Shown here piece after piece: positions 1,267-56,180 of a stretch of DNA of 64,000 nt. This stretch comes from Bdellovibrionota bacterium (GTDB lineage Bacteria > Bdellovibrionota_C > UBA2361 > JAAYZI01), in contig JBMNIF010000002.1 in assembly GCA_050950765.1 (NCBI GenBank), positions 640,001 to 704,000 on the forward strand, read 5' to 3'. Both the position numbers and the translations under genes were made by a program. Positions within the stretch are counted from its first letter, which is position 1. Every line of letters begins with the position of its first letter. The notes beneath the pieces were generated by a model. That model was not told the origin of the DNA. It was given only the letters and a program-made list of their open reading frames with translations, and made no database searches.

Positions 1267-1428
1267 ATGTCAAACAATGTAATTTTTTCTACACCTAGCT
1301 TTACTTTTTCTAAAGTGAATCAAAGTTAAGATAAGCAGTAGGTTAAAATGCTAAACAATGTAATTTTTCCTATCCCCAATTCTCTTTTTTGAAGTTAATT
1401 AAAGATTTTAAGATAAAACTATTGAAAA
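1267..1428. repeat. degenerate tandem duplication, 81-bp period, 2 copies
   Basis: AAACAATGTAATTTTT at 1272 and 1353, with further similarity downstream (TTAAGATAA). Confidence 0.65.
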
Positions 1429-2189
1429 TCTCTCTTTGAGAAGAAGAGTGTTGATAAAATAAGTGCAGCACCACAATATCCTACACTATAAAGTATTCCG
1501 AAGAGTAGTAGGTCTGAATCATAAGCGAGGTTGTAAACAACCCTTTCTGAAACATCAAGGAGATTCAGATGTGGTAAGATCTCATAAACAATTTTAAGAG
1601 GGATATTTAGTAGAGTTTCTTCATAACCTTTTAAAAATTGTAAGAAATATTGAGACGATCTACCCGCTAAGAAAAATGCAAAGCTAAAAAAGCCACTTAA
1701 AAACGGCGTGATGACAATTGAAGAAAAGAAGATGGTGCAAGCGCAGACAATAATACTTTGTAAAAAAATAAAAAAAGCTGCATAAAAGAGCATCCAATCA
1801 AAGCTTCCTTCAAGGAAATAGCAGAATAGAAATAAAACTAAAGTTAAGAGCAGAATCAAAACAGAGACTGTTGTGCCTAGCCCTAAAAATTTTCCGCATA
1901 AAAAAGCTGCTCTACTTAACGGTTTTGAAAGGATATTGTGGATAGTTTTAAGGGATAACTCTTTTGCAAGTAAAAGAGAGCCTGCAATAACGGCATACAT
2001 AGCAGAGAAAAAAGAGATGGTGAAGAGTCCGAAATCTTTAACAACTTTTACTTTCTCTCCTATGGTTACACTCCCGAAAAGTGCAGAGGCTACAACTACA
2101 AAAAATGCAAAAAAAAGTGTGGAGTACAACACTTTACTCCGTACAGATTCTTTAAATGTAAGACAGGCAATGGCGATAATCTTTCTCAT
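1419..2189 (-). CDS. ABC-2 type transporter permease (PilI-like)
   Basis: About 6 TM segments, ILSKPLSRAAFLCGKFLG motif, C-terminal FSKRDF; directly follows the ABC ATPase. Confidence 0.85.
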   Translation of the reverse strand: MRKIIAIACLTFKESVRSKVLYSTLFFAFFVVVASALFGSVTIGEKVKVVKDFGLFTISFFSAMYAVIAGSLLLAKELSLKTIHNILSKPLSRAAFLCGKFLGLGTTVSVLILLLTLVLFLFCYFLEGSFDWMLFYAAFFIFLQSIIVCACTIFFSSIVITPFLSGFFSFAFFLAGRSSQYFLQFLKGYEETLLNIPLKIVYEILPHLNLLDVSERVVYNLAYDSDLLLFGILYSVGYCGAALILSTLFFSKRDFQ

Positions 2190-2192
2190 TTT

Positions 2193-3128
2193 TTATTCCT
2201 CTACCTCTTCCCTAACTAACTTTAAAAATAACTCTTGTAATCCACCATTTGTTATCTGATAGGATTCTATCCGCACCCCTAAAACTAAAGCTTGTGCTAA
2301 AGCACTTTTGGCGTTTTTTTCATCATCAAAGATTAGTGTTTGGAGATCTCCATGCACTTTAAGGGCAGGATGAAAAGTTTCTACAATCTTTGAGGTGTTA
2401 TCATCCGTAGCCACAGTTAGCTCAAATTTATTATCTAGAACCTGCCCTAATTCTTTAAGGCTATATGTGCCTTTTAGAGAGCCATCTTTTAAAATTGCGA
2501 CATCATCACACAGCTGCTCAACATCGTTTAAGATATGAGAAGAGATAAAAATTGTAGTGCCGTTAGCTTTTAAGTTTCGTAATAACTCTATAAAGTCATT
2601 ACGTCCAAGTGGGTCTAGCCCTGAAAACGGTTCGTCTAGAATGAGTAGGCGTGGCTTGTGCATAATAGCTTGTGCTAGCGCTATCCGTTGTAGCTGTCCT
2701 TTTGAAAGGTTTTTTAAGGGAGTTTTTTCAGATTTTGTAAAATTTACTGCGGATAATGCTTCTCGAATGGTAGATTTTACTTGAGAAGAGGTGATATCGC
2801 TTAAGATAGCGAGCGTTTCTAATAGTTCTTTAACAGTAAGATAATCATAAAAATAGGGGAGCTCCGCTAAGTATCCGACTGCTTTTCTACTCTCTTTTTT
2901 CTTTGTGTTAATACCGAAGATCTCGATCTCTCCTGTACTAGCTTTGATTAGATCTAAGATGCACTTAATCGTTGTAGTCTTTCCGGCTCCATTGTGTCCG
3001 ATAAATCCGAAAGCACAACCTTGCGGCACCTCTAATGTTAGATTAGAGAGCGCTGCACTTGCTTTATAGGTCCACGGATTTCTATAAAAATAGGTGAGGT
3101 TTTTAATATTGATAGCAGGGGTATCCAT
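2193..3128 (-). CDS. ABC transporter ATP-binding protein (PilH-like)
   Basis: Walker A GHNGAGKTT, signature LSKGQ, Walker B LLILDEP, ISSH switch. Confidence 0.93.
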   Translation of the reverse strand: MDTPAINIKNLTYFYRNPWTYKASAALSNLTLEVPQGCAFGFIGHNGAGKTTTIKCILDLIKASTGEIEIFGINTKKKESRKAVGYLAELPYFYDYLTVKELLETLAILSDITSSQVKSTIREALSAVNFTKSEKTPLKNLSKGQLQRIALAQAIMHKPRLLILDEPFSGLDPLGRNDFIELLRNLKANGTTIFISSHILNDVEQLCDDVAILKDGSLKGTYSLKELGQVLDNKFELTVATDDNTSKIVETFHPALKVHGDLQTLIFDDEKNAKSALAQALVLGVRIESYQITNGGLQELFLKLVREEVEE

Positions 3129-3130
3129 AC

Positions 3131-10867: not shown

Positions 10868-10915
10868 AAAGTGGAGATGTTTTTTTGTTGGTTATGAGTT
10901 ATGTTTAGCGCCCTA

Positions 10916-11055
10916 AAAACCTCTAATACCTACTGAGGCTATACTTAACGCATGAAAAAAACCTCTGCTACCCATTAGAGTTATACCTAGCACATGAAAA
11001 AACCTCTACTACCTACTGAGGCTATACTTAGTGCATGAAAAAAACCCTCTGCCAC
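10916..11055. repeat. tandem repeat, ~41-bp unit x3.4 (higher-order 83-bp period)
   Basis: AAAACCTCT..TACC....CATG units; copies 1 and 3 share CCTACTGAGGCTATACTTA (10929, 11012). Confidence 0.85.
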
Positions 11056-21985: not shown

Positions 21986-22280
21986 TAATGTAAAGCGTGC
22001 TCCTGATACCCTCCCTACAATAAAAGGTTTAGAGTCACCTCTTCAAAAAGGGGGGGAGCACCGAAAGATCCTTAATCTTAGAATTATTTAACTCCTCTCT
22101 ATTCTAATAATCTAATAAGAAAAAATTTCCTATCGAAAAATCGTGCCCAAGTGGCGGTGTTTTATACAAAGATTATATTAAGTAAGATAAAAATCGGTAC
22201 GTAAGGAGCTTGTCTATCTTAAGTTCATAATTTAGATTGAAGCAGCTTTTTTTAAAGATAATTTTTTTGGATTTTCTCTT

Positions 22281-23531
22281 ATGAATAAGATTAAAACAGG
22301 TGGTGCTATCGTTGAAATGGATGGCGATGAGATGGCGGGTGTTGTTTGGCGCATGATAAAAGAACGTCTTATCTCGCCTTACCTTGATGTGCCTATTAAG
22401 TATTTCGATCTCTCCATTCAAAATAGAGATGCTACTGATGATGCTGTTACCGTAGAAGCAGCTCATGCTGTGCTTCAAAACAGAGTTGGTGTTAAGTGCG
22501 CCACCATCACACCGGACTTAGCACGTGTAAAAGAGTTTAGTTTAAAAAAGATGTGGAAATCGCCGAACGGTACCATCAGAAATATTATCGGTGGTACTGT
22601 TTTTAGAGAGCCGATAGTTTGTAAAAACATACCCCGTTTAGTTCCGCATTGGACAAAACCGATCGTGATCGCTAGACACGCCTTTGGAGATCAGTACCGC
22701 GCAACGGGGATGGAGATAACGAGGCCAGGACAAGTTGCCTTACAATTTACCCCTGATGACGGTACAGAGGCGCAAAAAAAAGAGGTCTTTAACTTTACCT
22801 CTAGTGGTGTCGTATTAGGGATGTATAACACTGATGCGTCGATTACTGAGTTCGCCATAAGTTGCTTTAATTACGCTTTACAACGTAGATACAACCTCTA
22901 TTTTTCAACAAAAAATACGATATTGCAGATCTATGACGGACGCTTCAAGGATATCTTCCAAGCGCTCTACGAAGAACGGTTTAAAAAACTTTTTGAGGAA
23001 AACGGCTTACGGTATGAGCACCGCCTGATCGATGATATGGTTGCTTTCGCTTTAAAAAGCGATGGTGGCTACCTCTGGGCGTGTAAAAATTACGATGGTG
23101 ATGTGCAATCAGATTCTGTGGCGCAGGGATTCGGTTCTCTAGGGCTGATGACATCTGTGTTATTAAACGGTGATGGTAGTGTTATGGAAGCAGAAGCTGC
23201 GCACGGAACAGTTACACGTCATTATAGATTACATCAAAAAGGGCTTGAAACCTCAACTAACCCGATCGCCTCAATCTATGCTTGGAGTAGAGGTTTAAAG
23301 AAACGGGGTGAGATAGATGAGAATAATCGTCTTGTGCAATTTGCCGAAGCTTTGGAGAAAAGCTGCATTGAAACGGTTGAAGCAGGGCTTATGACAAAAG
23401 ACTTAGCGTTGTGCTTACACGGTCCTGAGGTGAAACGTGAACAGTATCTCTCAACCGAAGAGTTTTTATCAGCGATAGCTGATAAACTCGCTATGCAAAA
23501 AATCGATGGTTTATTTCTAAAGGATCTATAA
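22281..23531 (+). CDS. icd: NADP-dependent isocitrate dehydrogenase (eukaryote-like type II)
   Basis: [47 protein letters not shown]. Confidence 0.97.
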
Positions 23532-24511
23532 TGGCATTTCCAACTACTCGTCTACGTCGTTTACGCCGTTCAGCAGAGCTGCGTGATTTAGTTCGTGAAA
23601 CAAACTTTGATGTTAAAGACTTAATAGCTCCGCTCTTTGTGGTGTGTGGTGAAAATAAAAAAGAAGAGATCTCTTCACTACCTAAGCAGTATCACTTCAG
23701 TGTCGACACCTTGTTGGAGGAGGTCTCCCGCTTAAAAAAATTAGGAGTAACGGCGTGTTTACTCTTCGGCGTGCCGGAGTATAAAGATGAAACAGGGAGT
23801 GCAGCTTGTAAAGATGATGGTGTAGTGCAGTGTGCGGTACGAGCTATTAAAAAGCACCTTCCGCAGATGTTGGTTATCACGGACCTCTGTTTTTGTGAGT
23901 ACACCTCTCACGGGCATTGTGGAATTTTGTGTGGTACAGAGTTGGATAACGATCGAACCCTTGAGATTATCGCTGCGCAGGCGTTATCACACGCTAGAGC
24001 AGGTGCTGATATTATAGCACCCAGTGGGATGATTGATGGTGCGGTGCAGTGCATTAGAAAAGCGCTTGATGGGGCGGGGTTTCAGAGTGTGGCGATTATG
24101 TCTTATGCCGCTAAATTCAGCTCCTCTTTTTATGGCCCCTTTAGAGAGGCCGCACAAAGTGCCCCATCTTTTGGGGATAGAAAAGGGTATCAGATGGATC
24201 CCGCTAATGTCTTGGAAGCTCTTAGGGAGGTTGAGTTAGATATTTTAGAAGGGGCGGATATCGTAATGGTAAAGCCTGCTTTGTCGTATTTAGATGTTTT
24301 GTATCGAGTAAAGGAACGGTTTCAAGTTCCGACAGCAGCGTATCAAGTAAGTGGTGAGTACGCCATGATTAAAGCTGCTGCAGCAAGGGGCTGGATTGAT
24401 GAAATGAAGATCGTACAAGAAACCCTTCTCTCAATTAAACGTGCTGGTGCCGATATGATCATAACCTATTTTGCAGGAGAGGTAGCTGAAGAGTTAGCGG
24501 TATTATCTTAG
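23531..24511 (+). CDS. hemB: porphobilinogen synthase
   Basis: DLCFCEYTSHGHCG Zn site, SSFYGPFREA, YQMDP, MVKPAL, AYQVSGEYAM; TAATG overlap with icd. Confidence 0.98.
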   Translation: MAFPTTRLRRLRRSAELRDLVRETNFDVKDLIAPLFVVCGENKKEEISSLPKQYHFSVDTLLEEVSRLKKLGVTACLLFGVPEYKDETGSAACKDDGVVQCAVRAIKKHLPQMLVITDLCFCEYTSHGHCGILCGTELDNDRTLEIIAAQALSHARAGADIIAPSGMIDGAVQCIRKALDGAGFQSVAIMSYAAKFSSSFYGPFREAAQSAPSFGDRKGYQMDPANVLEALREVELDILEGADIVMVKPALSYLDVLYRVKERFQVPTAAYQVSGEYAMIKAAAARGWIDEMKIVQETLLSIKRAGADMIITYFAGEVAEELAVLS

Positions 24512-24760
24512 GTTGTAAGATACGGCTAGGAGAAGAAAATCGGTTTAATGTATTGCGAGGGTATGAATAAAAAAATAGAGAGGAAAAAAGGTTATAAGGT
24601 ACAGCTAGGAGAAGAGAATCGGTTTAATGTATTGCGAAGGTAAGGATAAAAAATAGAGAGAAAAAAAAGGTTATAAGGTACAGCTAGGAGAAGAGAATCG
24701 GTTTAGTACATCGTAATGGTATGGATAAAAAAATCGAGGGGGAAAAAAGGTTATAAGATG
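24511..24760. repeat. tandem repeat, 79-80 bp x3 (plus start of a 4th)
   Basis: GGTTRTAAG at 24511, 24590, 24669, 24749; GCTAGGAGAAGA at 24525, 24604, 24683; fills the whole gap between convergent stop codons. Confidence 0.92.
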
Positions 24761-25473
24761 CGAGCGGGGGTGCCGACCGCTGTTTTTCCAGCGGGAACGT
24801 CTTCTCTAACGAGAGAGTGTGCACCGATAATAGCGCCGTCTCCAATAGTAACGCCGTCTAGGATTGTAGCGCGTGTGCCGATCCAAACGTTTTTACCGAT
24901 AGTGACTCCACCTTTAAGATCCATCTCTTGTGCGATAAGTGGTTTTTCACTATCACCCGTTTTGTGATTACCAGGTCCGATATAGACATAAGCGGCAATT
25001 AGGGTGCTTTCTCCGATCTCTATCTTTGATTGTGTTGCAATGCGACAATTTGTGCCGATATTTACCCCGTTTGAAACGGTAATTTTTGAATTTTTGGCAA
25101 CTATGGCGGAGCTACGTCCGAGGCTAACATAATCACCAAAGGTGATAGCGGCATCTTTTCCACGTGCATCTAGAACTGCATAATCATCAATCATACATTT
25201 AGTACCGAGAGAAATTTTGGAGGTGCCTCTAAGAACTAGACCTCTTCCAAAAGGTGTTCCGTGTCCACACGTTGAAAAAAGTTTGGGGTATGTTAAAGCA
25301 CGTGCAGCAAGCCCCAGAGCACCGCATAAGTTAGAGCATAAAAGTTGTGTCAATTCATAATAGGCAAAGTAAAAAAAAGAGCTATCTCCTACGGCTAACT
25401 CTTTATAGCGCGCCAAGGGGGAGCTTTTATCATCAGTTAAGTATGCTTGTTGCGGTGTGATAGCAGGCTTCAT
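24751..25473 (-). CDS. hexapeptide-repeat (LbH) acyltransferase
   Basis: IGKNVWIG, ILDGVTIGDGAIIGAHSLV, VGTPAR. Confidence 0.88.
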   Translation of the reverse strand: MKPAITPQQAYLTDDKSSPLARYKELAVGDSSFFYFAYYELTQLLCSNLCGALGLAARALTYPKLFSTCGHGTPFGRGLVLRGTSKISLGTKCMIDDYAVLDARGKDAAITFGDYVSLGRSSAIVAKNSKITVSNGVNIGTNCRIATQSKIEIGESTLIAAYVYIGPGNHKTGDSEKPLIAQEMDLKGGVTIGKNVWIGTRATILDGVTIGDGAIIGAHSLVREDVPAGKTAVGTPARIL

Positions 25474-25523
25474 AAAAATATATCTATATAATTGAGAGCT
25501 TCATTACAAGGAATAAAAAAATA

Positions 25524-25554
25524 AAAAGCAGACATCTAAAAGATGTCTGCTTTT
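25524..25554 (-). terminator. intrinsic terminator
   Basis: Perfect inverted repeat AAAAGCAGACATCT-AAA-AGATGTCTGCTTTT downstream of the SPFH gene. Confidence 0.8.
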
Positions 25555-25574
25555 CGTTTAAAAACGGTGCGATT

Positions 25575-26504
25575 TTATTGTTTTACGCACTGTTTTTTCT
25601 GTAATAACCCTTTTGCCATCGTAATCATGGAGCCAACATCTGCTACATCAGCTGAAAGGACCATAGTGTTGCTATTTTGAGCAAGTTTACCAAATTCTCC
25701 GATATACTGTTCAGCGATACGTAGGTTCATAGCATCTGTGCCACCATCAAGATTTAGTGATTCTGCTACTCTTGCAATACCCTCCGCTGTGGCGTTGGCA
25801 ACGGCGAGAATAGCAGCGGCTTGTCCTTCTGCTTCGTTAATCTGTTGCATCTTTTTAGCCTCACTTTCTTTAACTATGCGTTGCTTTGCACCTTCAGCAC
25901 GATTTATTTCAGAATCTCTCAACCCTTCTGATTCAAGAATAACAGCTCTTTTTTCACGCTCGGCACGCATCTGTTTTTCCATCGCAGCCAAAACATCAGC
26001 TGGTGGTGTGATATCTTTTATCTCATAACGGAGCACCTTTACCCCCCACGGCATAGCAGCTTTATCAGTTTCTGTAACTACGGCATGATTAACGGCAGCG
26101 CGCTCTTCAAAAGTTCTATCAAGTTCGATCTTGCCGATCTCGCTCCTTAATGTTGTTTGTGCCAATTGAGTTATAGCGTAAGCGTAGTTCGAGATACCGT
26201 AAGAGGCTTTAGCAGCATCAAGGACTTGAAGATAGATCACACCGTCTATTTCAACTTGTACATTGTCACGCGTGATACAGATCTGACGTGGAATATCAAA
26301 GGCGTGCTCTTTAAGAGAGTGCTTATAAGCAACAACGTCAAAGAACGGGAATAGGAAGTGAAAACCAGCATTTAATGTTTTACTGTATTTTCCGAGACGT
26401 TGCACAACGTAAGCTTCCTGTTGCGGAACAACAACAGCTATTTTAATAGCGATAATAACTACAAGAAGCACGAGGACTATGGTTAAGATGGCAGCTATGT
26501 TCAT
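25575..26504 (-). CDS. SPFH/stomatin (paraslipin, QmcA-like) protein
   Basis: VVQRLGKY, ITRDNV, LAQTTLRSEIG, WGVKVLRYEIKDI, MEKQMRAEREKRA. Confidence 0.94.
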   Translation of the reverse strand: MNIAAILTIVLVLLVVIIAIKIAVVVPQQEAYVVQRLGKYSKTLNAGFHFLFPFFDVVAYKHSLKEHAFDIPRQICITRDNVQVEIDGVIYLQVLDAAKASYGISNYAYAITQLAQTTLRSEIGKIELDRTFEERAAVNHAVVTETDKAAMPWGVKVLRYEIKDITPPADVLAAMEKQMRAEREKRAVILESEGLRDSEINRAEGAKQRIVKESEAKKMQQINEAEGQAAAILAVANATAEGIARVAESLNLDGGTDAMNLRIAEQYIGEFGKLAQNSNTMVLSADVADVGSMITMAKGLLQKKQCVKQ

Positions 26505-26581
26505 AAGACACCTCTTTAATTTTACTTTTCGTTAAACTTTACATCACGACGTTTTTTACAAAAAAACTAATAAAAAAACTA

Positions 26582-27016
26582 TTATCTTACTATTAAGAGG
26601 ATGCCATCCTTAGCGCTAACTGAATGCACACTCCCTTTTTGTAAAACTTCCTTAGATTCATTTTTTACAGACCAAACAGTGCCCCTTGTTTCAGCCTGTC
26701 CAATCTCTCCTACGGGGATATCTTCTGTAATTTTAATGTTGTCACCTATTAAATCTTCCGGCATCTCTTCTGCTGAAGTATGGAGTTTGTTTAAAACTTT
26801 TTTTCGTAAAAAGCACATCAGAACGATTGTGAAAACAGCAAAAGATGCCCACTGCATCCAAGGCTCTAGAGGTGTCATCAATAAATCAAAGAAGCTAACG
26901 AGTGTTCCAACAAGAAGCGCTGCCAGACCGAGAAAGAAAAGGTAAAAATCCGTTGCGATTAATGCCTCAGCGATTAGTAATACAAGACCAACAAATATCC
27001 ACATCCACCAGAGCAT
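26582..27016 (-). CDS. NfeD-family (YbbJ-like) membrane protein
   Basis: WWMWIFVGLVLLIAE, TM helices and an OB-fold tail (RGTVW); canonical SPFH partner. Confidence 0.9.
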   Translation of the reverse strand: MLWWMWIFVGLVLLIAEALIATDFYLFFLGLAALLVGTLVSFFDLLMTPLEPWMQWASFAVFTIVLMCFLRKKVLNKLHTSAEEMPEDLIGDNIKITEDIPVGEIGQAETRGTVWSVKNESKEVLQKGSVHSVSAKDGILLIVR

Positions 27017-29602: not shown

Positions 29603-29654
29603 AGTTTATGCTTTCTCTGAATCTTTTATAGATCAGAAAAGCATAAACTTTTTT
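29603..29654 (+). terminator. long hairpin terminator
   Basis: AGTTTATGCTTT..CTGA / TCAGAAAAGCATAAACT plus T-run. Confidence 0.75.
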
Positions 29655-29820
29655 CCTCACCGTATCTTTTTTACATAGAAGTTATAGGCTTCCTCTTTCT
29701 AGTTATAGACCTCCTACATATATAACCCTCTTTTTTCTCACTTATATCTTTTTACATAGAAGTTATGGGCTTTCTTTTTTGAATTATAGACCTTTACATA
29801 TATAACTCTCTTTTTTCTCC
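29649..29820. repeat. tandem duplication, ~81 bp x2
   Basis: ACATAGAAGTTAT at 29673 and 29754; TTATAGACCT and TACATATATAAC also repeated. Confidence 0.88.
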
Positions 29821-29918
29821 TTTCTACTCTTGCTCAAATTCAAAATTTCATTTAGCTCTATCTTATTGTATGTGCTATAAATTCTGTTCTCAGACCTCTT
29901 ATAGCAAAAGGAGAACTT

Positions 29919-30686: not shown

Positions 30687-30746
30687 AAGCGACTCTATCT
30701 TTATAAATTTTGACCTGTTTTTTTTAGAATTTTATTAGAGCTGCTT

Positions 30747-31196
30747 ATGAGCTTTATTCCTGATGATCTCTATCAGAAGATCCTTGAAAATGTGCCTATC
30801 GCCTGTGTTGATATCGCCATTGTAGCGAATGGTGCGGTGCTATTGGTGCAACGTAAAGATGCTCCGGCACGTGGTGAGTGGTGGGTCCCAGGGGGACGAG
30901 TCTTAAAAGGGGAGATGTTGCGAGAAACTGCTTTAAGAAAAGCAAAAGAAGAGGTCGGCATTCAGTGTCATATCGGTCCGATTGTACATACTGCAGAAAC
31001 CATCTTTCCTGATGGTCCCTACGGTGTTGCTGTACACAGTGTTAATACCTGCTTTTTATTATACCCACACGCTAACGAAACTTTACCCGCTTTAGATGAT
31101 CACCACAGTGATTTTAAATGGGTTAGTACCGTTCCTTCCGATCTGCATGAATATGTAAAAAAGTGTTTAGTAGGTGCAGGCTTGCAGGATACTTAA
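30747..31196 (+). CDS. Nudix hydrolase (GDP-mannose mannosyl hydrolase-like)
   Basis: PIACVD, PARGEWWVPGGRVLKGE...RKAKEEVG, LDDHH. Confidence 0.85.
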   Translation: MSFIPDDLYQKILENVPIACVDIAIVANGAVLLVQRKDAPARGEWWVPGGRVLKGEMLRETALRKAKEEVGIQCHIGPIVHTAETIFPDGPYGVAVHSVNTCFLLYPHANETLPALDDHHSDFKWVSTVPSDLHEYVKKCLVGAGLQDT

Positions 31197-31250
31197 GAAG
31201 TACCGATTTTAAACATCTTTTTCTAAAGGCTCTCTTTTTAATATTTTTCT

Positions 31251-31415
31251 AAGAGTTCGGAGATTTTTTTTGTAAAGGGAGATCTGCTTTTATTTGGAGA
31301 GGAAAAAGAGTAATAACAGAACATCTGTGTTTAAGAGAGTTCGGAGGTTTTTGTAAAAGGACAGATGTTTTTATTCTAAGAGGAAAAAAATTAGCGGCAG
31401 AGCATCTGTGTTTGA
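31251..31415. repeat. degenerate tandem duplication, 81-84 bp x2, overlapping the rsmE 3' end
   Basis: GAGTTCGGAG at 31253/31337; CATCTGTGTTT at 31322/31403. Confidence 0.8.
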
Positions 31416-32152
31416 GCGATGGCGGAGACACAGGCTGTATCAACTCTTAAAATACGATCTCCTAGTGAGATAACGGAGAAGCCGAGCTCTTGAAATTTAT
31501 GCACTTCGTGGAGATTCCAACCTGCTTCTGGACCTAATGCGATAAAAACACTTCTTTTTGTTGAAATTTTTGGTAAGTCCGAAAGTTTTTGTGGATTTTT
31601 AAAGTGGGTGTCCGCTATTAGAGTAAGTGGGGGTGTATTGTCTCTCTCTTTAAAAAGCTCCAAACGTTTCGGTAAGAGATCTTCAATAAAAGGTTGAAAA
31701 CGGTGATGGATAAAAACTTCAGGTGTTACCGATGTGCCGGATTGCTCCATCCCTAAGAGCAGGTCTTCTTTTAAACTTTCCGGATCTAAACGTTTTGAAG
31801 AGAGGTAGCTTTTTATAACGTTTTCGGTGCGGATCAGGTGTAACGCTCTAATGCCGAACGTGGCGGTAAGTTGCAGCACTTTTCTTACTGTTTGCGGACG
31901 TGGCACAGCTACGATCAATTCAAAAGGCACCACAGGCAGTTGCGGTGCAAAGTCGCGTAAGGTTAGTAAGATCTGGTCTGGTGTAATACTTGTAACAGTC
32001 GCCTTTTTTATAGCGCCGTTTACAACAAAAGCTGACATCTCGAGACCTTGCACAGGTTTGTGAACTTCAAGAGCGTACTTAGCGCGGCTTCCGCTAAGGC
32101 GTGCTTGATTGGGGGCAAGGAGTTCATCTTCAAAGATAGCAAGGTAATTCAT
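31391..32152 (-). CDS. rsmE: 16S rRNA m3U1498 methyltransferase
   Basis: PRPQ, EQSG, ALGPEAGW, LGDRILRVDTA (SPOUT). Confidence 0.92.
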   Translation of the reverse strand: MNYLAIFEDELLAPNQARLSGSRAKYALEVHKPVQGLEMSAFVVNGAIKKATVTSITPDQILLTLRDFAPQLPVVPFELIVAVPRPQTVRKVLQLTATFGIRALHLIRTENVIKSYLSSKRLDPESLKEDLLLGMEQSGTSVTPEVFIHHRFQPFIEDLLPKRLELFKERDNTPPLTLIADTHFKNPQKLSDLPKISTKRSVFIALGPEAGWNLHEVHKFQELGFSVISLGDRILRVDTACVSAIAQTQMLCR

Positions 32153-32306
32153 AAAATATTTTAAAAATCATCAGTAAAAGAGGAAAGTTTTTTTATTATG
32201 TGGCGAAGAGGGTAACAGGTATTCGTTGGAACGTTAGTAACACATCTCGCATGGTGAAGTTTTAGCGAATTTTTAAAAAATTATCTATTTTTTTGGAGAG
32301 ATTATT

Positions 32307-32927
32307 ATGCCTGATGTAAATCCTGTGAATCCTTCTTCGCAACTTAACTTAAATTGTGCTACCACCAATGAGGTTAGTGGTCAATGTATTGCACAAAGTG
32401 CACTGAATATCATTGCTCATTCTGGGAGAAGCTACGCTTTTTCGGAGGCACCAAGTAGCCCTTATAAAAATCTTTCCGGAAATAAAGTTCCGAATCAGAC
32501 GCAGATTGCGTGGTTAAAGAATAAAAATAAATGCAATCAGTTTGTTGGAGATGCTTTAAGTGCTGCTGGAGTTGGTGTGCCGACAAATCGTATGGCTGAC
32601 GGAACGGAACATTATAAGATTGCAGAATCCTTTCCGAACGAGAGCGCTTACTTTTCAAAGTTGGATAGCACAGCTGATGTGCAGGTGGGAGATGTTTTTG
32701 TAAAAGATTATGGTGCTGATGACGGAGAGTGTGGTGGACACACTGAAGTCGTTGTAGAGGTAGACCGTAGAAGGAATGTGATTAAGTTGGCGGGAGCCCA
32801 TAGAAATGGGGCCTACGTTTCTGAAATGAGTTTAAATAATGAAAGTTGGAAGTTTAATCCACTTCAAAAATCTTGGACAAACGGATTGGATAACATCTAC
32901 TTTTTAAGAGCACGAAAAAAAGCGTAG
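32307..32927 (+). CDS. hypothetical protein with NlpC/P60/CHAP-like Cys-His dyad (putative amidase)
   Basis: NKCNQFVGDALSAAG ... VGDV ... GHTEVV; no Sec signal; Pro/Asn/Ser-rich N-terminus. Confidence 0.55.
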   Translation: MPDVNPVNPSSQLNLNCATTNEVSGQCIAQSALNIIAHSGRSYAFSEAPSSPYKNLSGNKVPNQTQIAWLKNKNKCNQFVGDALSAAGVGVPTNRMADGTEHYKIAESFPNESAYFSKLDSTADVQVGDVFVKDYGADDGECGGHTEVVVEVDRRRNVIKLAGAHRNGAYVSEMSLNNESWKFNPLQKSWTNGLDNIYFLRARKKA

Positions 32928-33160
32928 TTATTTAATTATGTTTTTTAGCGTCGGATTTATAGAGAATTATTAAAAAAATCTTCTGTCTCTTCGATTTCTC
33001 GTTACATCTATAAGTCCGACGTTTTTTTCTTATTTTTTAAGAGCACAAAAAATGTAGTTATTTAATCATGTTTTTTTAGCGTCGGATTTATAGAGAATTA
33101 TTAAAAAATCTTCTGTCTCTTCGATTTCTCGTTACATCTATAAGTCCGACGCTTTTTTTA
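32901..33160. repeat. near-identical tandem duplication, ~133 bp x2 (gene 3' end plus terminator-like hairpin)
   Basis: AAGAGCAC at 32906/33039; each copy holds CGTCGGATTTATAGA...TCTATAAGTCCGACG plus a T-run. Confidence 0.93.
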
Positions 33161-33334
33161 TCTTTCCTAGTGAACTCCTATAAAAACGTGACGTTTTTTC
33201 TTCTTCTCCAGCGAAAACTTTTATTAAATTTAGAATTTTTATTTTTTTGACACATCCCTTAAAGTACCATATATTTTAACGGTCATTTCCCTATTTTTTT
33301 AATAAGTTAGGGAATTTTTTCTTAGGAAAATATC

Positions 33335-34615
33335 ATGTTAGACATCAATAGAATTAGAGAAAATCCGGAAGCCGTTAAAAACGCCCTCCTTAAGAGAATG
33401 GATAGTGTCGATTTTACAAACCTCCTTAAAGAAGATGCGGAATGCCGTAAATTATTGCAAGAAGTTGAAGGTCTTAAAGCTAGAAGAAATAAAGTTTCCG
33501 CAGATATTCCGCGCTTAAAAAAAGAGGGGAAAGATATCTCTTCTTTAATGGATGAGATGAAGGAGGTCGGAGAATCTATTAAGTCTCTTGATGCGCGGTG
33601 TGCAACTTTGCAAGATAGTATCCGTACTTTTATGGAATCGCTACCGAATGTTCCTGCTGATGATGTTTTGCCAGGAAATAAAGAAAACAACAAAGTTGTT
33701 AAAACTTTTGGAGAAAAACCGACCTTTTCTTTTAAAGCGAAAGATCACATTGAGATCGCACAAAGCCTTAAACTGATTGATTATGAACGTGGTGTAAAAC
33801 TTGGTGGTAATGGTTTCTGGATCTATCAAGGAGAGGGGGCGCGCTTAGAATGGGCGCTGCTGCAATACTTTATTGATCAGCACATCAAAGACGGTTACAC
33901 CTTTATGCTTTTGCCGCACATCTTAAACTGGCAATCTGGAATTACGGCAGGGCAGTTTCCGAAGTTTGTTGATGATGTTTTTACCTTAACAGGTGCAGAG
34001 GATAAAGAGCATACGCAATTCCTTCTGCCTACTGCTGAGACGGCTTTGATCAACCTTTATCGTGATGAAATTATTCCTGAAGCGGAATTGCCGAAAAAAC
34101 TGTTCGGTTATACTCCATGTTACAGAAAGGAAGCGGGAAGTTATCGTGCAGCAGAACGCGGCATGATTCGCGGACATCAATTTAACAAGGTAGAGATGTT
34201 CGCTTACTGTTTACCGGAAGATTCTGATAAGATCCTTGATGAGTTAATCGCTAAAGCAAGTGCTTTAGTTGAAGGGCTGGGGTTGCACTATCGTGTTAGT
34301 AAACTTGCTGCGGGAGATTGCAGCGCTTCTATGGCAAAAACTTTTGATGTTGAAGTCTGGATTCCTAGCATGAATGAATATAAAGAGGTTAGCTCCGCTT
34401 CCAATGCTCACGACTATCAGGCACGTCGCGGAAATATTCGTTACAAACAACAAGCCAGTGGTAAAAATCTTTTCGTACACACCTTAAACGCTTCAGGTCT
34501 TGCTACCAGTCGCCTCTTCCCCGCTATCTTGGAGCAGTTTCAGCAGGAAGATGGATCGGTTGTGGTGCCGGAGGTGTTAAGAAAGTGGGTTGGAAGAGAT
34601 CAACTAACTTTGTAA
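33335..34615 (+). CDS. serS: serine--tRNA ligase
   Basis: LLPTAE, YRKEAG, RGMIRGHQFNKVE, EVSSASN, HTLNASGLA. Confidence 0.98.
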   Translation: MLDINRIRENPEAVKNALLKRMDSVDFTNLLKEDAECRKLLQEVEGLKARRNKVSADIPRLKKEGKDISSLMDEMKEVGESIKSLDARCATLQDSIRTFMESLPNVPADDVLPGNKENNKVVKTFGEKPTFSFKAKDHIEIAQSLKLIDYERGVKLGGNGFWIYQGEGARLEWALLQYFIDQHIKDGYTFMLLPHILNWQSGITAGQFPKFVDDVFTLTGAEDKEHTQFLLPTAETALINLYRDEIIPEAELPKKLFGYTPCYRKEAGSYRAAERGMIRGHQFNKVEMFAYCLPEDSDKILDELIAKASALVEGLGLHYRVSKLAAGDCSASMAKTFDVEVWIPSMNEYKEVSSASNAHDYQARRGNIRYKQQASGKNLFVHTLNASGLATSRLFPAILEQFQQEDGSVVVPEVLRKWVGRDQLTL

Positions 34616-34616
34616 A

Positions 34617-34795
34617 CGCTTTTTTCTACTGAAGATTTTATCGGTTAGGAAAATGCCTTAAGCGAGAGGGGGAAAAAAGATCGTTTAACTCCGTAAGTGC
34701 TTTTTTCTACTGAAGATCTTTTTTTTATTAGGGAAATACCTTAAGCGAGAAGAGGGAAAAAAAGATCCTTTAACTCTGCGGGTGCTTTTTTCTCT
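34617..34795. repeat. degenerate tandem duplication, 81-85 bp x2
   Basis: TTTTTCTACTGAAGAT at 34621/34702; CCTTAAGCGAGA and TTTAACTC repeated; begins right after the serS stop. Confidence 0.85.
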
Positions 34796-34889
34796 GTAAC
34801 GGCAAAGATAGTTTTTAGGAGCGATATTATAAGAGGTGTAAATTATTTTCTCTTACAAACTATCGCTCCATCTTTATAAAAAGAAAAAA

Positions 34890-36638
34890 TTATTTAATTC
34901 TTATTTTCTTTAGAGTGATTGAAGAGTCAGTTGTAGCTTCGGTTAAAATATAACCTTTTTTAAGGCTTTTTTTAATGTTGCAATTTAGTTGAATCTTCTT
35001 TGATTTCTTAGGCTTTAAAGTTTTGATGGTGGATTTTTTACAGAGCTTGTCTTTAGAGTCTATAACTTTATTTTTTGAAATATACGTTTTAATTTGGATA
35101 TTATTACCAGCATCTTTGCCGTTATTTTTTATGACAAGTGTAGAAGACAATTTGTTGTTAGTTACTTTAGTATTTCTAAAATTAAGCTTTAGGATGACAT
35201 TTTTTTTGTTGTCATTTATGATAGGATCCTTAGAGTCTTCATTTTTTTCTGGAAGTTTTTCACAAGCATCAATTTTTCCATTGGAGTTATTATCTATAGG
35301 GAAATATTCGGCAAAGACGAGACCTGCTTTGGGAAGGTAATTGTTTATGTCTATAAAATCAGGATCTGAATATAAAGAATCTATATAGCCATCACCATTA
35401 ATATCTCCAATTGTTACAGCACGAGAAAATTTAAATACATCGGAAGTTATTTGACGTTCGATAATAAGGTCTTTGTTGGCACCAGAATAGATGGATAAAG
35501 AACCGTATTCTCCTGTGTAGACCATAAAATCAGCATGACCATCATTATCTACATCAGATAATGGCCAAACATCATCGTATGTTAAATCTGGTGTGCCATT
35601 GTCGATCCTATATAGTTCAGAGAGATCTTTCCCTGATAAAAAGTAGACAATGCCGATTGCGCCTATGTTAGGTGTGGCAACTACAGCTAAATCAGAATAA
35701 CCATCTTTATTTAGATCACCTAATTCACGTAAAATTCCACCAAAGTTAGTTTTTGTATCGGTATCTAAGATGATAATGCCCAACAAATCACCATTAGCAC
35801 CTGAGAGGAGTGCCACAAAGCCATCAATGAGCGTAGAGCTGTAGATATCATCATTATCTTTTGTTAATGAAACCCCTGATGCTGAAACGAGGATATCGGC
35901 TATATTGTCATTATTATAATCATGAAATAGAAGAGCAGCATCTCCGAATGTATAAAACCCACTTACTTTAGCGTACGCAAAATCGTCGACTGTGTAATTA
36001 TTCACCCAAATGAGAGAACCATCTATTCCAGAGTGAGCATAAATTACAGAATTCTCAGAATCTGTAATTATATAATCAGGATAGCCGTCTTTGTTTAAAT
36101 CTTTTCCACCTGTTACTGTAGAGCCATAGTTTGTTATAACCCTTCTTCCATAAATAGGAGAGGTATGATGTCTGATTTTAGTACCTGTTTTTCCTGAAAA
36201 AATAGTGACTACACCGTTTGATCCTATATCAATTGTGCCGCCGATCGCAAAATCATCAAAGCCGTCTTTGTTAATATCACCTAACGGAAATGCAGTATTG
36301 CCATAAACAGATAACGCATTTGAATAACTACTTGTTATTTTGTAGAGCTCTATGCCGGTTTTTCCTGAGTAAACATGTACAACTTGATGGGTATAGTTTG
36401 GTGCTTTAACATCACTATTTGCGCCTAAATAAAAATCAGGAACGCCATCTCCGTTTACATCACCGATAGGACCCAGCGTAGAGCCAAGTCGGTCTGAAAC
36501 GTATGAATTACCAGAAGGGGCAGCTGCACCTTTGTAGTGAAAAATCAATGGACATTCCTGGGCGTAAGCGAAATCGAAATTTAATAAAAGAAAAGTGATA
36601 AAAACATATAAGGTATAAAATTTATTTATTATTTGCAT
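34890..36638 (-). CDS. secreted FG-GAP (integrin-alpha-like) repeat protein with Lys-rich CARDB-like C-terminus
   Basis: Six GD(V/I/L)N.DG..D-type Ca-binding repeats (some degenerate); signal peptide ending AYA; noticeably AT-rich. Confidence 0.88.
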   Translation of the reverse strand: MQIINKFYTLYVFITFLLLNFDFAYAQECPLIFHYKGAAAPSGNSYVSDRLGSTLGPIGDVNGDGVPDFYLGANSDVKAPNYTHQVVHVYSGKTGIELYKITSSYSNALSVYGNTAFPLGDINKDGFDDFAIGGTIDIGSNGVVTIFSGKTGTKIRHHTSPIYGRRVITNYGSTVTGGKDLNKDGYPDYIITDSENSVIYAHSGIDGSLIWVNNYTVDDFAYAKVSGFYTFGDAALLFHDYNNDNIADILVSASGVSLTKDNDDIYSSTLIDGFVALLSGANGDLLGIIILDTDTKTNFGGILRELGDLNKDGYSDLAVVATPNIGAIGIVYFLSGKDLSELYRIDNGTPDLTYDDVWPLSDVDNDGHADFMVYTGEYGSLSIYSGANKDLIIERQITSDVFKFSRAVTIGDINGDGYIDSLYSDPDFIDINNYLPKAGLVFAEYFPIDNNSNGKIDACEKLPEKNEDSKDPIINDNKKNVILKLNFRNTKVTNNKLSSTLVIKNNGKDAGNNIQIKTYISKNKVIDSKDKLCKKSTIKTLKPKKSKKIQLNCNIKKSLKKGYILTEATTDSSITLKKIRIK

Positions 36639-39739: not shown

Positions 39740-41626
39740 GTGAACAAAATGAACAGGGAAGAGTTCAATCATCCAGTAAGTGCTAATAATCTTGATTCAA
39801 AAAAAGAAGATATCGAAAACATAAATAACAATCTTCAAGGAGAGAAAAAGAGGAGGATTGCAAAAGTATCAGCGCATCTGATTATCTTGCTAATGGTATT
39901 AGCTGCGGCGTTATTAGTAACTTCATGTAGCGATAAGGCAAATAATTGCCCATTAAAGAAAGAGGAAGTTAGACTTGATGAGATAAAGCTTAGCTCTGAA
40001 GAATTAAATGCCTGCATCGCTCTGGCAGAGAAGGGAAATGTAGTTGTTCAATTAAATTTAGGTAATGTATATCTGCGAGGGCACGGAGTTCCAAAAGATT
40101 TTGTAGAGGCGATTAAATGGTACAAAAAAGCAGCAGATCAAGGAGATGCTAACGCTCAATTTAATTTAGGCGTTATATATAGTGACGGGAAGGTGGTTTC
40201 TCAAGATCTTGCAGAGGGGCTTAAGTGGCTTAGAAAAGCAGCTGACCAAGGATATGCTTTTGCTCAAAATAATTTGGGCTATATGTATGAAAATGGATAT
40301 GGAGTTTCTCAAGATTATAAAGAAGCAGTTAAGTGGTATAAAAAGGCAGCGGATCAAGGATGCGCTCCCGCACAGTTCGGTTTAGGCAATATGTATGGTG
40401 AAGGAAGGGGAGTTCCTCAAGATTATAAAAAAGCAGTTAAGTGGTATAAAAAGGCAGCGGATCAAGGAGATGCTCTTGCTCAAAACATTTTAGGCATTAT
40501 GTATGCTGAAGGACACGGAGTTCCTCAAGATTATAAAGAAGCAATTAAGTGGTATATAAAGGCAGCGGATCAAGGATTTGCTTTAGCTCAAAACGCATTA
40601 GCTAATATCTATTTTTTAGGGCAAGGAGTCCCTCAAGATTATAAAGAGGCGCTTAAGTGGCTTAGGAAAGCAGCTGAACAAGGTGAGGGAGAGGCTCAAA
40701 ATAATTTAGGCTTTATGTATAAAAATGGGCATGGAGTTCCTCGTGATTATAAAGAAGCAGAGAAATGGTTTCGTAAAGCGGTTGAACAAGGGAATGTTGC
40801 CGCACAATCCAATCTAGGTGTTATGTATCTAGAAGGGGAGGGAGTTTCTCAAGATTATAAAGAAGCAGCTAAATGGTTTCGTAAAGCGGCTGATCAAGGA
40901 CATATTCCCGCACAACTTCTTTTAGGCAATATGTATCGGCAAGGGATAGGAGCTCCCCAAGATTATAAAGAGGCAGCTAAATGGTTTCATAAGGCAGCTG
41001 AACAGGGAGATGCTGCTTCTCAAAGTAATTTAGGTCTTATGTATCTAGAAGGGATGGGAGTTCCGCAAGATTTTGTAGAAGCAGCTAAATGGAATAGGAA
41101 AGCAGCAGAACAAGGAGCAGATATAGCTCAACATAATTTAGGGGTTGCATATTATAATGGAAATGGTGTTCCTCAAGATTATAAAGAGGCTGTTAAGTGG
41201 TATAGAAAAGCAGCAGAACAAGGATATCCTCTTGCTCAAAATAGTTTGGGCGATATGTATGAAAATGGGCGCGGTGTTAAACAAGATTACAAAGAAGCAG
41301 AGAAATGGTTTCGTAAAGCGGCTGAACAGGGAAACGTTAATGCTCAATTTAATTTAGGTAATATGTATATATCTGGACAAGGCGTTGCAAAAGATTATAA
41401 AGAAGCATTTAAGTGGTTTAAAAAAGCAGCGGAACAAGGAGACCCTCAAAGTGCTTTAAATGTCGGTATAATGTATTTTCAAGGTGATGGTGTAAAGGTA
41501 GATCATAAAGAATCTTTTAAATGGCTTCAATTGGCTAAAAAGCAGAAGAAAGATTCAGGTGTTATGGTAAAAGCGATATATTTTCAGATAAAACACGGAG
41601 ATGTGTTTGATAAATTTAATGAATAG
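39740..41626 (+). CDS. Sel1-repeat (SLR) protein, probable lipoprotein or membrane anchor; start uncertain
   Basis: 14 tandem 36-aa repeats AQ..LG.MY..G.GV.QDY.EA.KW..KAA.QG; hydrophobic segment ending LVTSC. Confidence 0.95.
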   Translation: MNKMNREEFNHPVSANNLDSKKEDIENINNNLQGEKKRRIAKVSAHLIILLMVLAAALLVTSCSDKANNCPLKKEEVRLDEIKLSSEELNACIALAEKGNVVVQLNLGNVYLRGHGVPKDFVEAIKWYKKAADQGDANAQFNLGVIYSDGKVVSQDLAEGLKWLRKAADQGYAFAQNNLGYMYENGYGVSQDYKEAVKWYKKAADQGCAPAQFGLGNMYGEGRGVPQDYKKAVKWYKKAADQGDALAQNILGIMYAEGHGVPQDYKEAIKWYIKAADQGFALAQNALANIYFLGQGVPQDYKEALKWLRKAAEQGEGEAQNNLGFMYKNGHGVPRDYKEAEKWFRKAVEQGNVAAQSNLGVMYLEGEGVSQDYKEAAKWFRKAADQGHIPAQLLLGNMYRQGIGAPQDYKEAAKWFHKAAEQGDAASQSNLGLMYLEGMGVPQDFVEAAKWNRKAAEQGADIAQHNLGVAYYNGNGVPQDYKEAVKWYRKAAEQGYPLAQNSLGDMYENGRGVKQDYKEAEKWFRKAAEQGNVNAQFNLGNMYISGQGVAKDYKEAFKWFKKAAEQGDPQSALNVGIMYFQGDGVKVDHKESFKWLQLAKKQKKDSGVMVKAIYFQIKHGDVFDKFNE

Positions 41627-54065: not shown

Positions 54066-54109
54066 TCGATCTCTTAACGCAGAAGTAGAGCCTACCTAAA
54101 ATTAACGCA

Positions 54110-55237
54110 TTATGATTTCTGCAAGATAAAGTCTTTACCGTGTAGCGTTGTGTTTAGCGGTTCTATAACAACCTCTCTATCTTTTGCCTCTTCAATCTCA
54201 CCTGCGATTACACCATTTAAGTTTACTGTTTTTGCAAGTTCCACAGCTTTTTCTGCACTTGCTTGATCGGGAAGATAAACAGCAAGCCCTGCACCGTAGT
54301 TAAATATCTCAACCATGCGTGAAGGTGGTGTGTTGCTGTGTTCTTCGATAAAGGAAAATACTTCTGGAACGGGTAGCATCTTGTTTATAACGTAGCGATA
54401 CGGTTTCGCCGAACGCATTAACTTTTGCCAACCGTGACCTGTAATGTTTTCAATGTTTGTAGGTTTTATTCCAGCCTTGAGGAGGGTCTGAACGTAAGGG
54501 GTATAAAGTTTTGAACCACGATTTATAGCACGCCAGTACTCTTCACCACTTGGCAAAGTTGTGCGATAACCGTGAGGCAAGCGGCTTGCTAATTCGCGCA
54601 GTGCTGTAAAACCGTTTTCATGGGGACCAGAGCTTTCGATAAAAACGATCTTGTCTCCAGCTTTAATGGCGTTGCTACTAATCGGGGAGAGTCCCGCTGG
54701 CATAAGTCCGAAAAGTGCCCCTGCGATATCGAGTTTGTCTGTAACGATTTTATTCTTAAGTTGTGGTGTTTCTCCCGAAAAATAAACGCACTTTACAAGG
54801 CGGCAGCCATCTACGAAACCATCAAGAAAGCCTTTTAAAAACTCTTCATTAAAAACTATCTCGGGTGAGCTGCTCGGTAGGTAAAGCCCGAGTAGAATAG
54901 TTTGTAGCCCTGAAGCAGCAGCATCATTGGTTAGTGCAGACATCATCTTTGTAGCGATGTTATACCAGAATTCGTATTGTTCAGATTTTGAGAGATCTTC
55001 AGGGCGGGCATCATCAGCTGTGCCCAAGCCTTCTGGAAGGAGGGTGATATAGAGATTTTCCGCGCCTGATCTGATGTATGGCGCAAGGTTTAGGGAAAAG
55101 ATATTAGCGCTAGCGCCGAGTTTCGTATCAGGCACGAAGCCGAAATCTTCAGCGAACGTTAATGTACGTCGTGCTGCTTCAATAAAAGCCTGTTTGGCGC
55201 GGTCAAGTACGTTATATTCAACTTGATCTAATGTCAT
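54110..55237 (-). CDS. purM: AIR synthase (PurM)-family protein, divergent
   Basis: EGLGT, ND, GET, SSGPHENG, NITGHG, FNYGAG. Confidence 0.72.
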   Translation of the reverse strand: MTLDQVEYNVLDRAKQAFIEAARRTLTFAEDFGFVPDTKLGASANIFSLNLAPYIRSGAENLYITLLPEGLGTADDARPEDLSKSEQYEFWYNIATKMMSALTNDAAASGLQTILLGLYLPSSSPEIVFNEEFLKGFLDGFVDGCRLVKCVYFSGETPQLKNKIVTDKLDIAGALFGLMPAGLSPISSNAIKAGDKIVFIESSGPHENGFTALRELASRLPHGYRTTLPSGEEYWRAINRGSKLYTPYVQTLLKAGIKPTNIENITGHGWQKLMRSAKPYRYVINKMLPVPEVFSFIEEHSNTPPSRMVEIFNYGAGLAVYLPDQASAEKAVELAKTVNLNGVIAGEIEEAKDREVVIEPLNTTLHGKDFILQKS

Positions 55238-55526
55238 GCTAATACCTCACAATAATATAGTAAGAAATATAGTAAGAGCTGTTTTAAAGTAAAAATACAC
55301 TTTTGTTATTAAGTTTAAAACAGATCCTTGCTTTGATTCAAGGTTGTTAAGAACCATTAGGGGGGCTTATGGCTCAAAAATAATGTCACTTTTTGAGGCG
55401 ATGCGGGGTGTTGTATAAGTTCTGAAGGAATACCATTACAAATTCGGGGGGTAAAACGTTATAAAAACAGAGCTACCTGTATAATTTATACTTGAATCAT
55501 AGAAACGGGAGGGGTAGGTTAAGTTT

Positions 55527-56018
55527 ATGGTATTTAATAAAGTCAAAAAATTTCCAGGTTTAAAGATGAAGAAACTTGCAGGTGGCAAACATCCTGTAAA
55601 GTTAGTAGAGGAGTTTATTACTAAGCGCGGCTTCGATCCGAACGTTTGTCTTAGTGAAAAAACAGCCGATACTGTGCGTTGGATGCTTAAACTTGGTGAT
55701 GAAGAAGAGCTTGAAGTTTTAGTCGAAGGTTTAACGAAACCGGCAGAAACTACTATTTATATGGGGGTGAATATCGCAACCGTACCTATTCGGGGTGCCC
55801 TTGATATGTTGGTTTCGGCGTTAGAGATTGCAGATGGGTTGGTTGGGATAAAAGTTAGTTTAGTCGGACATTTTCTAGTATTAAGTGCCAGCTTAGGACT
55901 CTCCGGAGTTTCAGTAGATGATCTAGAGTATAATTATAACCTAATCGAGGCGCAACAAGCTTGGTTTAAAAACGCTCTTTCCGAAGAGTTAGGGTTAGAA
56001 AATTTCTCAGAAGAATAA
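55527..56018 (+). CDS. YbjN / CesT-type (T3SS chaperone-fold) acidic protein
   Basis: About 150 aa, acidic, alpha-beta-beta-beta-alpha-beta-beta-alpha pattern by eye. Confidence 0.5.
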   Translation: MVFNKVKKFPGLKMKKLAGGKHPVKLVEEFITKRGFDPNVCLSEKTADTVRWMLKLGDEEELEVLVEGLTKPAETTIYMGVNIATVPIRGALDMLVSALEIADGLVGIKVSLVGHFLVLSASLGLSGVSVDDLEYNYNLIEAQQAWFKNALSEELGLENFSEE

Positions 56019-56180
56019 TTTTACTATGCGCCTTTAAGTGGGAGAGGAAAAAATGCTCTTTCCGAAGAGTTAGGATTAGAAAATTTCTCAGAAGAATAAT
56101 TTTACTATGCGCCTTTAAGTGGGAGAGGAAAAAATGCTCTTTCTGAAGAGTTAGGATTAGAAAATTTCTCTGAAGAATAA
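55968..56180. repeat. tandem repeat, 81 bp x2.6, copying the last 16 codons and stop of the upstream gene
   Basis: GCTCTTTC.GAAGAGTTAGG at 55974, 56055, 56136; two identical 30-nt linkers. Confidence 0.95.

Follow-up and report, generated by a model that had tools for sequence, protein, structure and literature searches.

What would cause tandem duplications that have no sequence in common to be of nearly the same length? This question is raised by a 64-kb stretch of DNA from a Bdellovibrionota bacterium (assembly GCA_050950765.1, contig JBMNIF010000002.1, positions 640,001 to 704,000; hereafter the window), in which a sequence-only reading had noted seven mutually unrelated loci with tandem duplications of nearly equal period, close to 81 bp, at or just past stop codons. 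The proposal made there, that something besides random slippage favors a fixed length, was supported by the spectrum of repeat periods in the genome as a whole. Only two unit lengths, ~44 to 45 bp and ~79 to 83 bp, are common. The genome (2.64 Mb; GC content, 0.40; 94% complete) consists of five contigs, labeled C1 to C5; the window is C2:640001-704000, and loci are designated by their window positions.

Tandem Repeats Finder (TRF) was run on the window and then on the full genome. In the window run, TRF detected six of the seven loci. The seventh, locus 1272, was not called by TRF in that run, but it contains a 21-nt stretch repeated 81 bp apart, and the self-identity of positions 1262 to 1362 at a shift of 81 bp (50%) was the highest of 100 offsets (40 to 139; mean, 31%; standard deviation, 5%). 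Locus 1272 is therefore a decayed 81-bp copy, and the seven loci of near-equal period were all recovered. The period of one of them needs correction: the "83 bp" given for locus 10929 is two units of 41 to 42 bp, in agreement with the ~41-bp halves already recognized there. The array at 60241 was absent from the earlier list. In the inventory below, the short class comprises the units of ~45 bp, and the purine word is the motif GAGG(A/T)AAAAA considered further on.

1262..1443, no strand assigned: decayed 81-bp duplication that adjoins and overlaps the stop codon (1419-1421) of a minus-strand ABC-2 permease gene
10915..11052, no strand assigned: array of 41- to 42-bp units, 3.3 copies, 76 to 77% matches (TRF; short class)
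24510..24757, plus strand: array of 79-bp units, 3.1 copies, 85% matches (TRF)
29648..29819, minus strand: array of 81-bp units, 2.1 copies, 84% matches (TRF; purine word on the minus strand)
31267..31427, plus strand: old 81-bp duplication, 2.0 copies, 75% matches (TRF)
34618..34793, plus strand: array of ~85-bp units, 2.1 copies, 83% matches (TRF)
55968..56180, plus strand: array of 81-bp units, 2.6 copies, 96% matches (TRF)
60241..60391, plus strand: array of 45-bp units, 3.4 copies (TRF; AGGTAAAAA in every unit; short class)

The genome-wide TRF run returned 422 arrays, and the histogram of their periods was not flat, so that the length preference is real and greatly exceeds what chance would give. 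There was a sharp peak at 75 to 84 bp (73 arrays) and a second at 40 to 49 bp (48 arrays). A period of at least 30 bp was found for 264 arrays, 100 of which belong to a single dispersed 79-bp family that is treated separately below. The 164 arrays outside this family fell mainly into a long class with periods of 77 to 85 bp (43 arrays; mode, 81 bp) and the short class with periods of 41 to 48 bp (41 arrays; mode, 44 to 45 bp), with 10 arrays at 49 to 76 bp and 7 at 86 to 113 bp. When units were read by eye, three arrays at 88 to 91 bp were visible dimers of ~45 bp. Periods from 114 to 402 bp were evenly spread, and these arrays, mostly very young, behave as ordinary unstable duplications would. 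Thus, the favored length of ~81 bp that had been proposed for the window extends to the genome, but it is not the only one, as a second class at ~44 to 45 bp also exists.

The preferred lengths were already present in the youngest arrays: among the eight arrays with at least 95% matches and a period below 110 bp, five had periods of 75 to 81 bp. Copy number per array reached 6.8. Most arrays of the two classes (74 of 84) are intergenic, and unit lengths that are not a multiple of three (79, 80, 82, and 83 bp) are common. By crude open reading frame (ORF) calls, the periods of all 42 in-gene arrays are multiples of three and those of intergenic arrays are not, which supports both the gene calls and the intergenic assignment. 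In-gene arrays with periods of 81, 81, and 84 bp exist, too few to decide anything. The spacing spectrum of repeated 10-mers, with the arrays masked, had an excess at 69 to 85 bp (39 to 42 pairs per bp, compared to ~20 to 25 elsewhere), which is spiky, probably comes from a few arrays that escaped masking, and carries little weight.

The units that share these lengths do not share a sequence. Clustering by similarity divided the 264 arrays into 144 components, and the 164 arrays outside the 79-bp family into 143 groups, mostly singletons. In 68 of 79 intergenic arrays of the two classes, the unit had no other match in the genome. Hidden homology among the arrays was considered and rejected, as the identity of cores anchored on the purine word was 0.28 between units versus 0.27 in rotated controls; hidden homology to the 79-bp family was likewise rejected (anchored identity, 0.26 versus 0.245 in controls). 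The same was true of hairpin or REP-like structure, with a mean folding z score of -0.7 for 40 units compared to -0.83 for 60 control intergenic segments, and of helical phasing or curvature, as the autocorrelation of AAA/TTT within units had no 10- to 11-bp signal. The three arrays searched against Rfam had no match. A CRISPR array has a constant repeat and unique spacers; here the whole unit repeats, at 75 to 96% identity.

Several arrays include genuine coding sequence, which shows that units were copied from local DNA rather than inserted; at two of them, described next, it is the end of a gene. The unit at 55968 consists of the final 51 bp of a conserved gene for a 163-amino-acid protein plus 30 bp of 3' flank, and this gene end is conserved, as 40 of 41 genomes in the order have homologues that align to residues 146 to 163, most of them to at least residue 156. 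The array at 31267 covers the final 37 bp of a minus-strand RNA methyltransferase gene, the Pfam domain of which extends to residue 246 of 252. The copying of gene ends, which the sequence-only reading had reported for several loci, was thus demonstrated at these two, and units are built in place from local DNA, sometimes with the last codons of the flanking gene.

The relationship of the arrays to stop codons was less uniform than had been claimed. In the window, the claim is correct for six of the seven loci, which are in contact with a stop codon or a short distance past it, and five loci lie between convergent genes. The array at 10915 is in a convergent spacer, 48 bp past the stop codon of a pseudouridine synthase gene; the array at 24510 begins within the hemB stop codon and finishes 7 bp into the convergent gene; and the array at 34618 begins 2 bp past the serS stop codon. 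However, upstream of the array at 29648 there is only an unverified 89-amino-acid ORF. The enrichment at gene ends expected for the whole genome was a weak trend: arrays were found in 21 convergent, 41 tandem, and 12 divergent contexts, compared to 16.2, 39.7, and 18.1 expected from the number of intergenic bases (chi-square P = 0.17). The median gap from an array to a gene 3' end was 47 bp, and 37 of 83 such gaps were within 30 bp; for 5' ends, the figures were 117 bp and 15 of 65. This greater proximity to 3' ends would also arise from selection against the disturbance of promoters.

A common feature of the otherwise unrelated units is the purine word GAGG(A/T)AAAAA, which most units carry but which is not obligatory. 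Its density was 1.30 per kb in arrays, 8 times that in other intergenic DNA (0.17 per kb), and 0.03 per kb in genes, and GGAAAAA was present in 25 of 49 long-class units versus 3 expected from intergenic frequencies. When units were scored for the word against 842 control intergenic segments, the 95th percentile of the controls was exceeded by 24 of 40 arrays in the long class and 21 of 34 in the short class, although this test is somewhat circular in that the arrays themselves supplied the weight matrix. In each class, most arrays have a single word per unit. The position of the word relative to the joints between units suggests that its A/T runs serve as short homology at the joint, because arrays often stop at the A-run of the word: 13 of 40 arrays terminate 4 to 7 nt past the start of the A-run. 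Every unit at 24510 terminates in the word and then an A-run. In the internal copies at 55968, the word straddles the joint between units, with a G-rich flank followed by the A-run (coding in the first of the copies), and just beyond the array lie a G-run and an A-run like these. The two length peaks were the same in arrays without the strict word, with 15 arrays lacking it and 25 carrying it in the 75- to 84-bp bins and 20 and 14, respectively, in the 40- to 49-bp bins. In tandem gene contexts, the word was on the sense strand of the gene in nine cases and on the antisense strand in seven.

Arrays in the window also differed between near-identical strains by whole units. Twenty sequencing runs, which belong to 13 studies (digesters, bioreactors, landfill, and wastewater), contained some part of the interval from 24900 to 34800, and in 18 runs half or more of the words sampled from that interval were present. 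Contigs from four runs (X4, X6, X12, and X16) were aligned to window positions 22000 to 36500, with the following results.

24510: the X4 contig skips 79 bp and is otherwise identical, with the joint within 43 shared bases
24510: the X6 contig skips 177 bp and has 18 other letters, a net change of -159 bp (two units)
29648: the X6 and X16 contigs skip 81 bp, with 5 shared bases at the joint
29648: the X12 contig goes back 150 bp and has 11 extra letters, about two more units (~+161 bp)
31267: no whole-unit change in the covering contigs
32901: the X6 contig skips 130 bp and has one copy only
34618: the X6 contig skips 85 bp, a weak case in that the shorter side of the joint is 27 bp

In the X6 allele at 24510, the single remaining unit is flanked by a 12-nt direct repeat. 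At 31267, the X4 contig had no listed difference, the X12 contig had small differences, and the X6 and X16 contigs had small insertions or deletions. The whole-unit differences at 24510, 29648, 32901, and 34618 are those of a variable-number tandem repeat (VNTR) or minisatellite, and the arrays behave as variable-number repeats. After its birth, an array therefore grows and shrinks like any other such repeat, through slippage or unequal exchange. The locus at 32901 (window positions 32901 to 33159) is a 130-bp tandem duplication (2.0 copies, 93% matches by TRF), each unit of which contains a long-range inverted repeat followed by a T-run, an arrangement that resembles a terminator.

Outside the window, the dispersed 79-bp family accounts for ~560 units, or 1.5% of the genome, with a common 79-bp consensus but no consensus fold. 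Of 61 genomes from the order, only this one was found to contain it. Six near-identical paralogous genes, encoding proteins of 322 to 333 amino acids that match Pfam Y1_Tnp (29 bits; cutoff, 23), are associated with it.

C1:184279-185247, Y1 transposase gene
C2:7666-8667, Y1 transposase gene
C2:892198-893166, Y1 transposase gene
C2:1186626-1187594, Y1 transposase gene
C3:210795-211763, Y1 transposase gene
C5:7945-8946, Y1 transposase gene

Each of the six genes has units of the family 177 to 623 bp upstream in the same orientation, and the GGTGCCACCC box of the family flanks the genes at both ends in inverted orientation. A word similar to that of the arrays, GGAGGTTAAAAA, lies just before the box, at the same position in the unit as the word in the arrays. 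Together, the family and its Y1 genes resemble the REP/RAYT or IS200 systems, here in a Bdellovibrionota genome. As in the REP/BIME-RAYT systems described by Nunvar et al. (2010; PMC2817692), there are Y1 genes flanked by inverted boxes, hundreds of dispersed copies, and regular arrays; the boxes of the 79-bp family are direct, in contrast to the alternating boxes of BIMEs. The six near-identical copies of the Y1 gene are more like an insertion sequence (IS) than a RAYT. The palindromic dispersed unit and Y1 transposase that characterize REP/BIME-RAYT systems are represented by the 79-bp family and not by the arrays in the window, which have no box, hairpin, or dispersed copies.

With a little less than even confidence, we regard the window loci as lineage-specific, noncoding minisatellites of fixed unit length and no common sequence, the length of which is set by a ruler at duplication. 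Such a ruler would be physical and independent of sequence and would act at the duplication step, for example as a protein or machine of fixed size positioned on DNA at the purine word, with a strand re-pairing or rejoining one footprint (~45 bp) or two footprints (~81 bp) away. The main rival is that selection sets the length: duplications of all lengths would arise, and only those that space copies of the word ~45 or ~81 bp apart would be kept, for example because a word-binding protein polymerizes or bridges at that spacing in nucleoid organization or insulation at gene ends. We consider this possible, yet appreciably less probable than a ruler. It would account well for the fact that units in most long- and short-class arrays contain a single word, for the density of the word in arrays, and for the occurrence of a like word at the corresponding place in the unit of the unrelated 79-bp family. 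Selection of this kind, involving a protein, is also the explanation preferred for 52-nt constant-length bacterial repeats in PMC8161180, which reports constant length together with species-specific short words. However, the length peaks were equal in arrays without the strict word, and 16 of the 40 long-class arrays did not exceed the 95th percentile of the controls for it. Lengths of 81 and 44.5 bp do not correspond to an integral number of helical turns, and A-tracts were not phased. A ruler at duplication is favored because the peaks persist without the word, because near-identical two-copy arrays are already at the right length, and because units take in any local DNA, including the coding ends of genes. 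A more specific form of the ruler, in which a machine of fixed footprint sits at the G-rich/A-run word near gene ends and replication or repair recopies the ~9 + 36n bp that it covers, seems unlikely as formulated; the footprints might be those of RNA polymerases, stalled or collided, or of single-strand-binding tetramers on a displaced strand, in either case one versus two. The two length peaks do fit 9 + 36n. Several points weigh against a ruler. The 9 + 36n formula is numerology, a speculation drawn from just two peaks. No candidate ruler gene was found among the multicopy families of the genome, which are ordinary ones (ABC ATPases, epimerases, and IS transposases), and there was no histone-fold match in the genome. 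Some old arrays, such as that at 31267 (75% matches), persist with no whole-unit change in the covering contigs, which selection also explains. The strand of the word relative to GC skew (24 versus 15; P = 0.20) gave no robust replication-strand bias. The strain comparisons were made with short-read de Bruijn contigs, and because such contigs can collapse tandem repeats, the joints of X4 at 24510 and X6 at 32901, which lie within 43 to 49 shared bases, carry little weight; with just 5 shared bases, the 81-bp joints at 29648 argue against collapse and are better evidence, as is the X6 allele at 24510 with letters of its own. Finally, the nearest genome compared (65% amino acid identity in HemB) had no 45- or 81-bp peaks in the 248 kb (40 of 390 contigs) covered; it is a fragmented short-read assembly from which repeats may be missing.

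Two further explanations invoke mobile elements. The Y1 transposase might also act on the purine word, excising unit-length single-stranded segments and reinserting them to leave local tandem copies. The 79-bp family lends this some plausibility, with its Y1 genes flanked by the box, its units upstream of all six genes, its identical unit length, and its similar word just before the box. Nevertheless, we consider it improbable for the arrays in the window, where the box does not occur beyond chance (one match with one mismatch versus 0.8 expected) and the units have no excess of hairpins. The 5' flanks of 17 solo units of the family, read by eye, do not show the word as a target, and no family array is present in C2 550 to 750 kb, the zone in which unrelated arrays are densest. 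The sequence-only reading had itself offered two other possibilities, that the duplications are scars of an element with very long target-site duplications or that they are templated copies of transcript 3' ends, in this case as cDNA made by a reverse transcriptase. The genome does contain 33 paralogues of a DDE_Tnp_1 transposase, members of the IS1634 family make long and variable target duplications, and the arrays are near gene 3' ends. Despite this, both possibilities are highly improbable. Scars of target-site duplication would be present in exactly two copies, with an element that makes duplications of such length, and do not fit arrays of up to 6.8 copies or between-strain differences of one or two complete units. 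No long direct repeat flanks the IS copy in the window, the one paralogue of the 33 that was checked. Copying from transcripts is disfavored by the absence of any RVT_1 match in the 94%-complete genome, which also speaks against retroelements such as diversity-generating retroelements (DGRs) and retrons, and by the occurrence of the word on either strand relative to genes. Nor does the genome contain a source copy of the units at another site. For staggered cutting and repair at a protein-wrapped site, the remaining mechanism offered by the sequence-only reading and still a candidate, the data weigh neither for nor against. The IS element in the window (61436 to 63286) has 28-nt inverted repeats (61436 to 61463 and 63259 to 63286; 93% complementary), encodes a 557-amino-acid DDE_Tnp_1 transposase, and adjoins a truncated N-6 DNA methylase gene (63261 to 63836).

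The closest named relatives by HemB were Bdellovibrionales or Bdellovibrionota metagenome-assembled genomes, at 62 to 64% identity, which agrees with the Bdellovibrionota label without proving it, and the relatives in a metagenome scan were at most 52% identical. No array of this kind was seen in 313 kb of the loci of more distant relatives. The trait looks lineage-specific, although the evidence is weak because short-read assemblies lose repeats.

The class to which the arrays belong is already in print; new here are the unit lengths, the phylum, and the direct evidence of in-place origin. Bacterial tandem repeats of constant length and variable sequence have been described, with origin and function given as unexplained (Subirana and Messeguer, Int J Mol Sci 2021; PMC8161180). 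The arrays in this study are like those repeats in that there are many noncoding arrays per genome with a common length and different sequences, in that the length is not a multiple of three, in that the units contain short species-specific words (here GAGG(A/T)AAAAA), and in that arrays are partly conserved between strains with variable copy number. They are unlike them in size, ~44 to 45 and ~79 to 83 bp compared to the 20 to 21 nt and 52 nt that the introduction of the article gives as the only sizes found (its supplementary tables might list rarer ones). They are also unlike them in copy number, as most arrays here have 2 to 4 copies and the search threshold stated in the article was at least four repeats. 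A further difference from the account in the article is that some units here demonstrably include gene ends and that the host is a Bdellovibrionota lineage. Limited word searches of the open-access literature found no description of constant-length repeats of 45 or 80 nt, which is not proof of absence.

Comparable behavior is known in other bacteria. Intergenic units of ~150 bp in Ehrlichia ruminantium are said to have been described by Frutos et al. (2006) and Collins et al. (2005). According to PMC6547736 and PMC10710844, noncoding tandem units of ~150 bp actively expand and contract in this species. The arrays in this study are similar to these in that noncoding tandem repeats gain and lose units of one typical length, but they differ from the ~150-bp unit and from its host, an obligate intracellular alphaproteobacterium, as portrayed there. 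The MIRU-VNTR loci of Mycobacterium tuberculosis, as presented in PMC5056196, are direct repeats of 40 to 100 bp that are nonpalindromic, mostly intergenic, and polymorphic between strains, and the arrays in this study resemble them in size range, lack of palindromes, intergenic location, and copy number variation. MIRU units are related across loci, have one orientation to the adjacent gene, and contain small ORFs in that account. In contrast, the units here are unrelated and were found in either orientation (9 sense and 7 antisense).

With the peaks at ~45 and ~81 bp, this genome adds a clean two-peak case to a published puzzle that has no mechanism, together with proof that units are copied locally, gene ends included, a common word, and differences in whole-unit steps between strains from many digester and bioreactor samples. 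The central question is whether a ruler acts at the moment of duplication or selection acts later. If the ruler is mutational, intergenic DNA in bacteria would have a new source of structured growth. If a ruler of fixed footprint is correct, it would be a mutational mechanism that has not been described, would make intergenic DNA steadily longer, and would explain all of the published constant-length repeats of bacteria.

Two minor observations concern the surroundings of the arrays. The gene at window positions 39740 to 41626 encodes a 628-amino-acid protein of 14 Sel1 repeats, for which TRF reported periods of 108, 216, and 324 bp; this is ordinary coding repetition, separate from the arrays of the two length classes. 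Arrays outside the 79-bp family cluster near a switch in GC skew, with 12 in C2 600 to 700 kb compared to 3.0 expected (post hoc Poisson P = 7e-5) and 28 in C2 400 to 750 kb compared to 10.5 expected (also post hoc). The GC-skew switch that this array-dense region flanks is probably the origin of replication.

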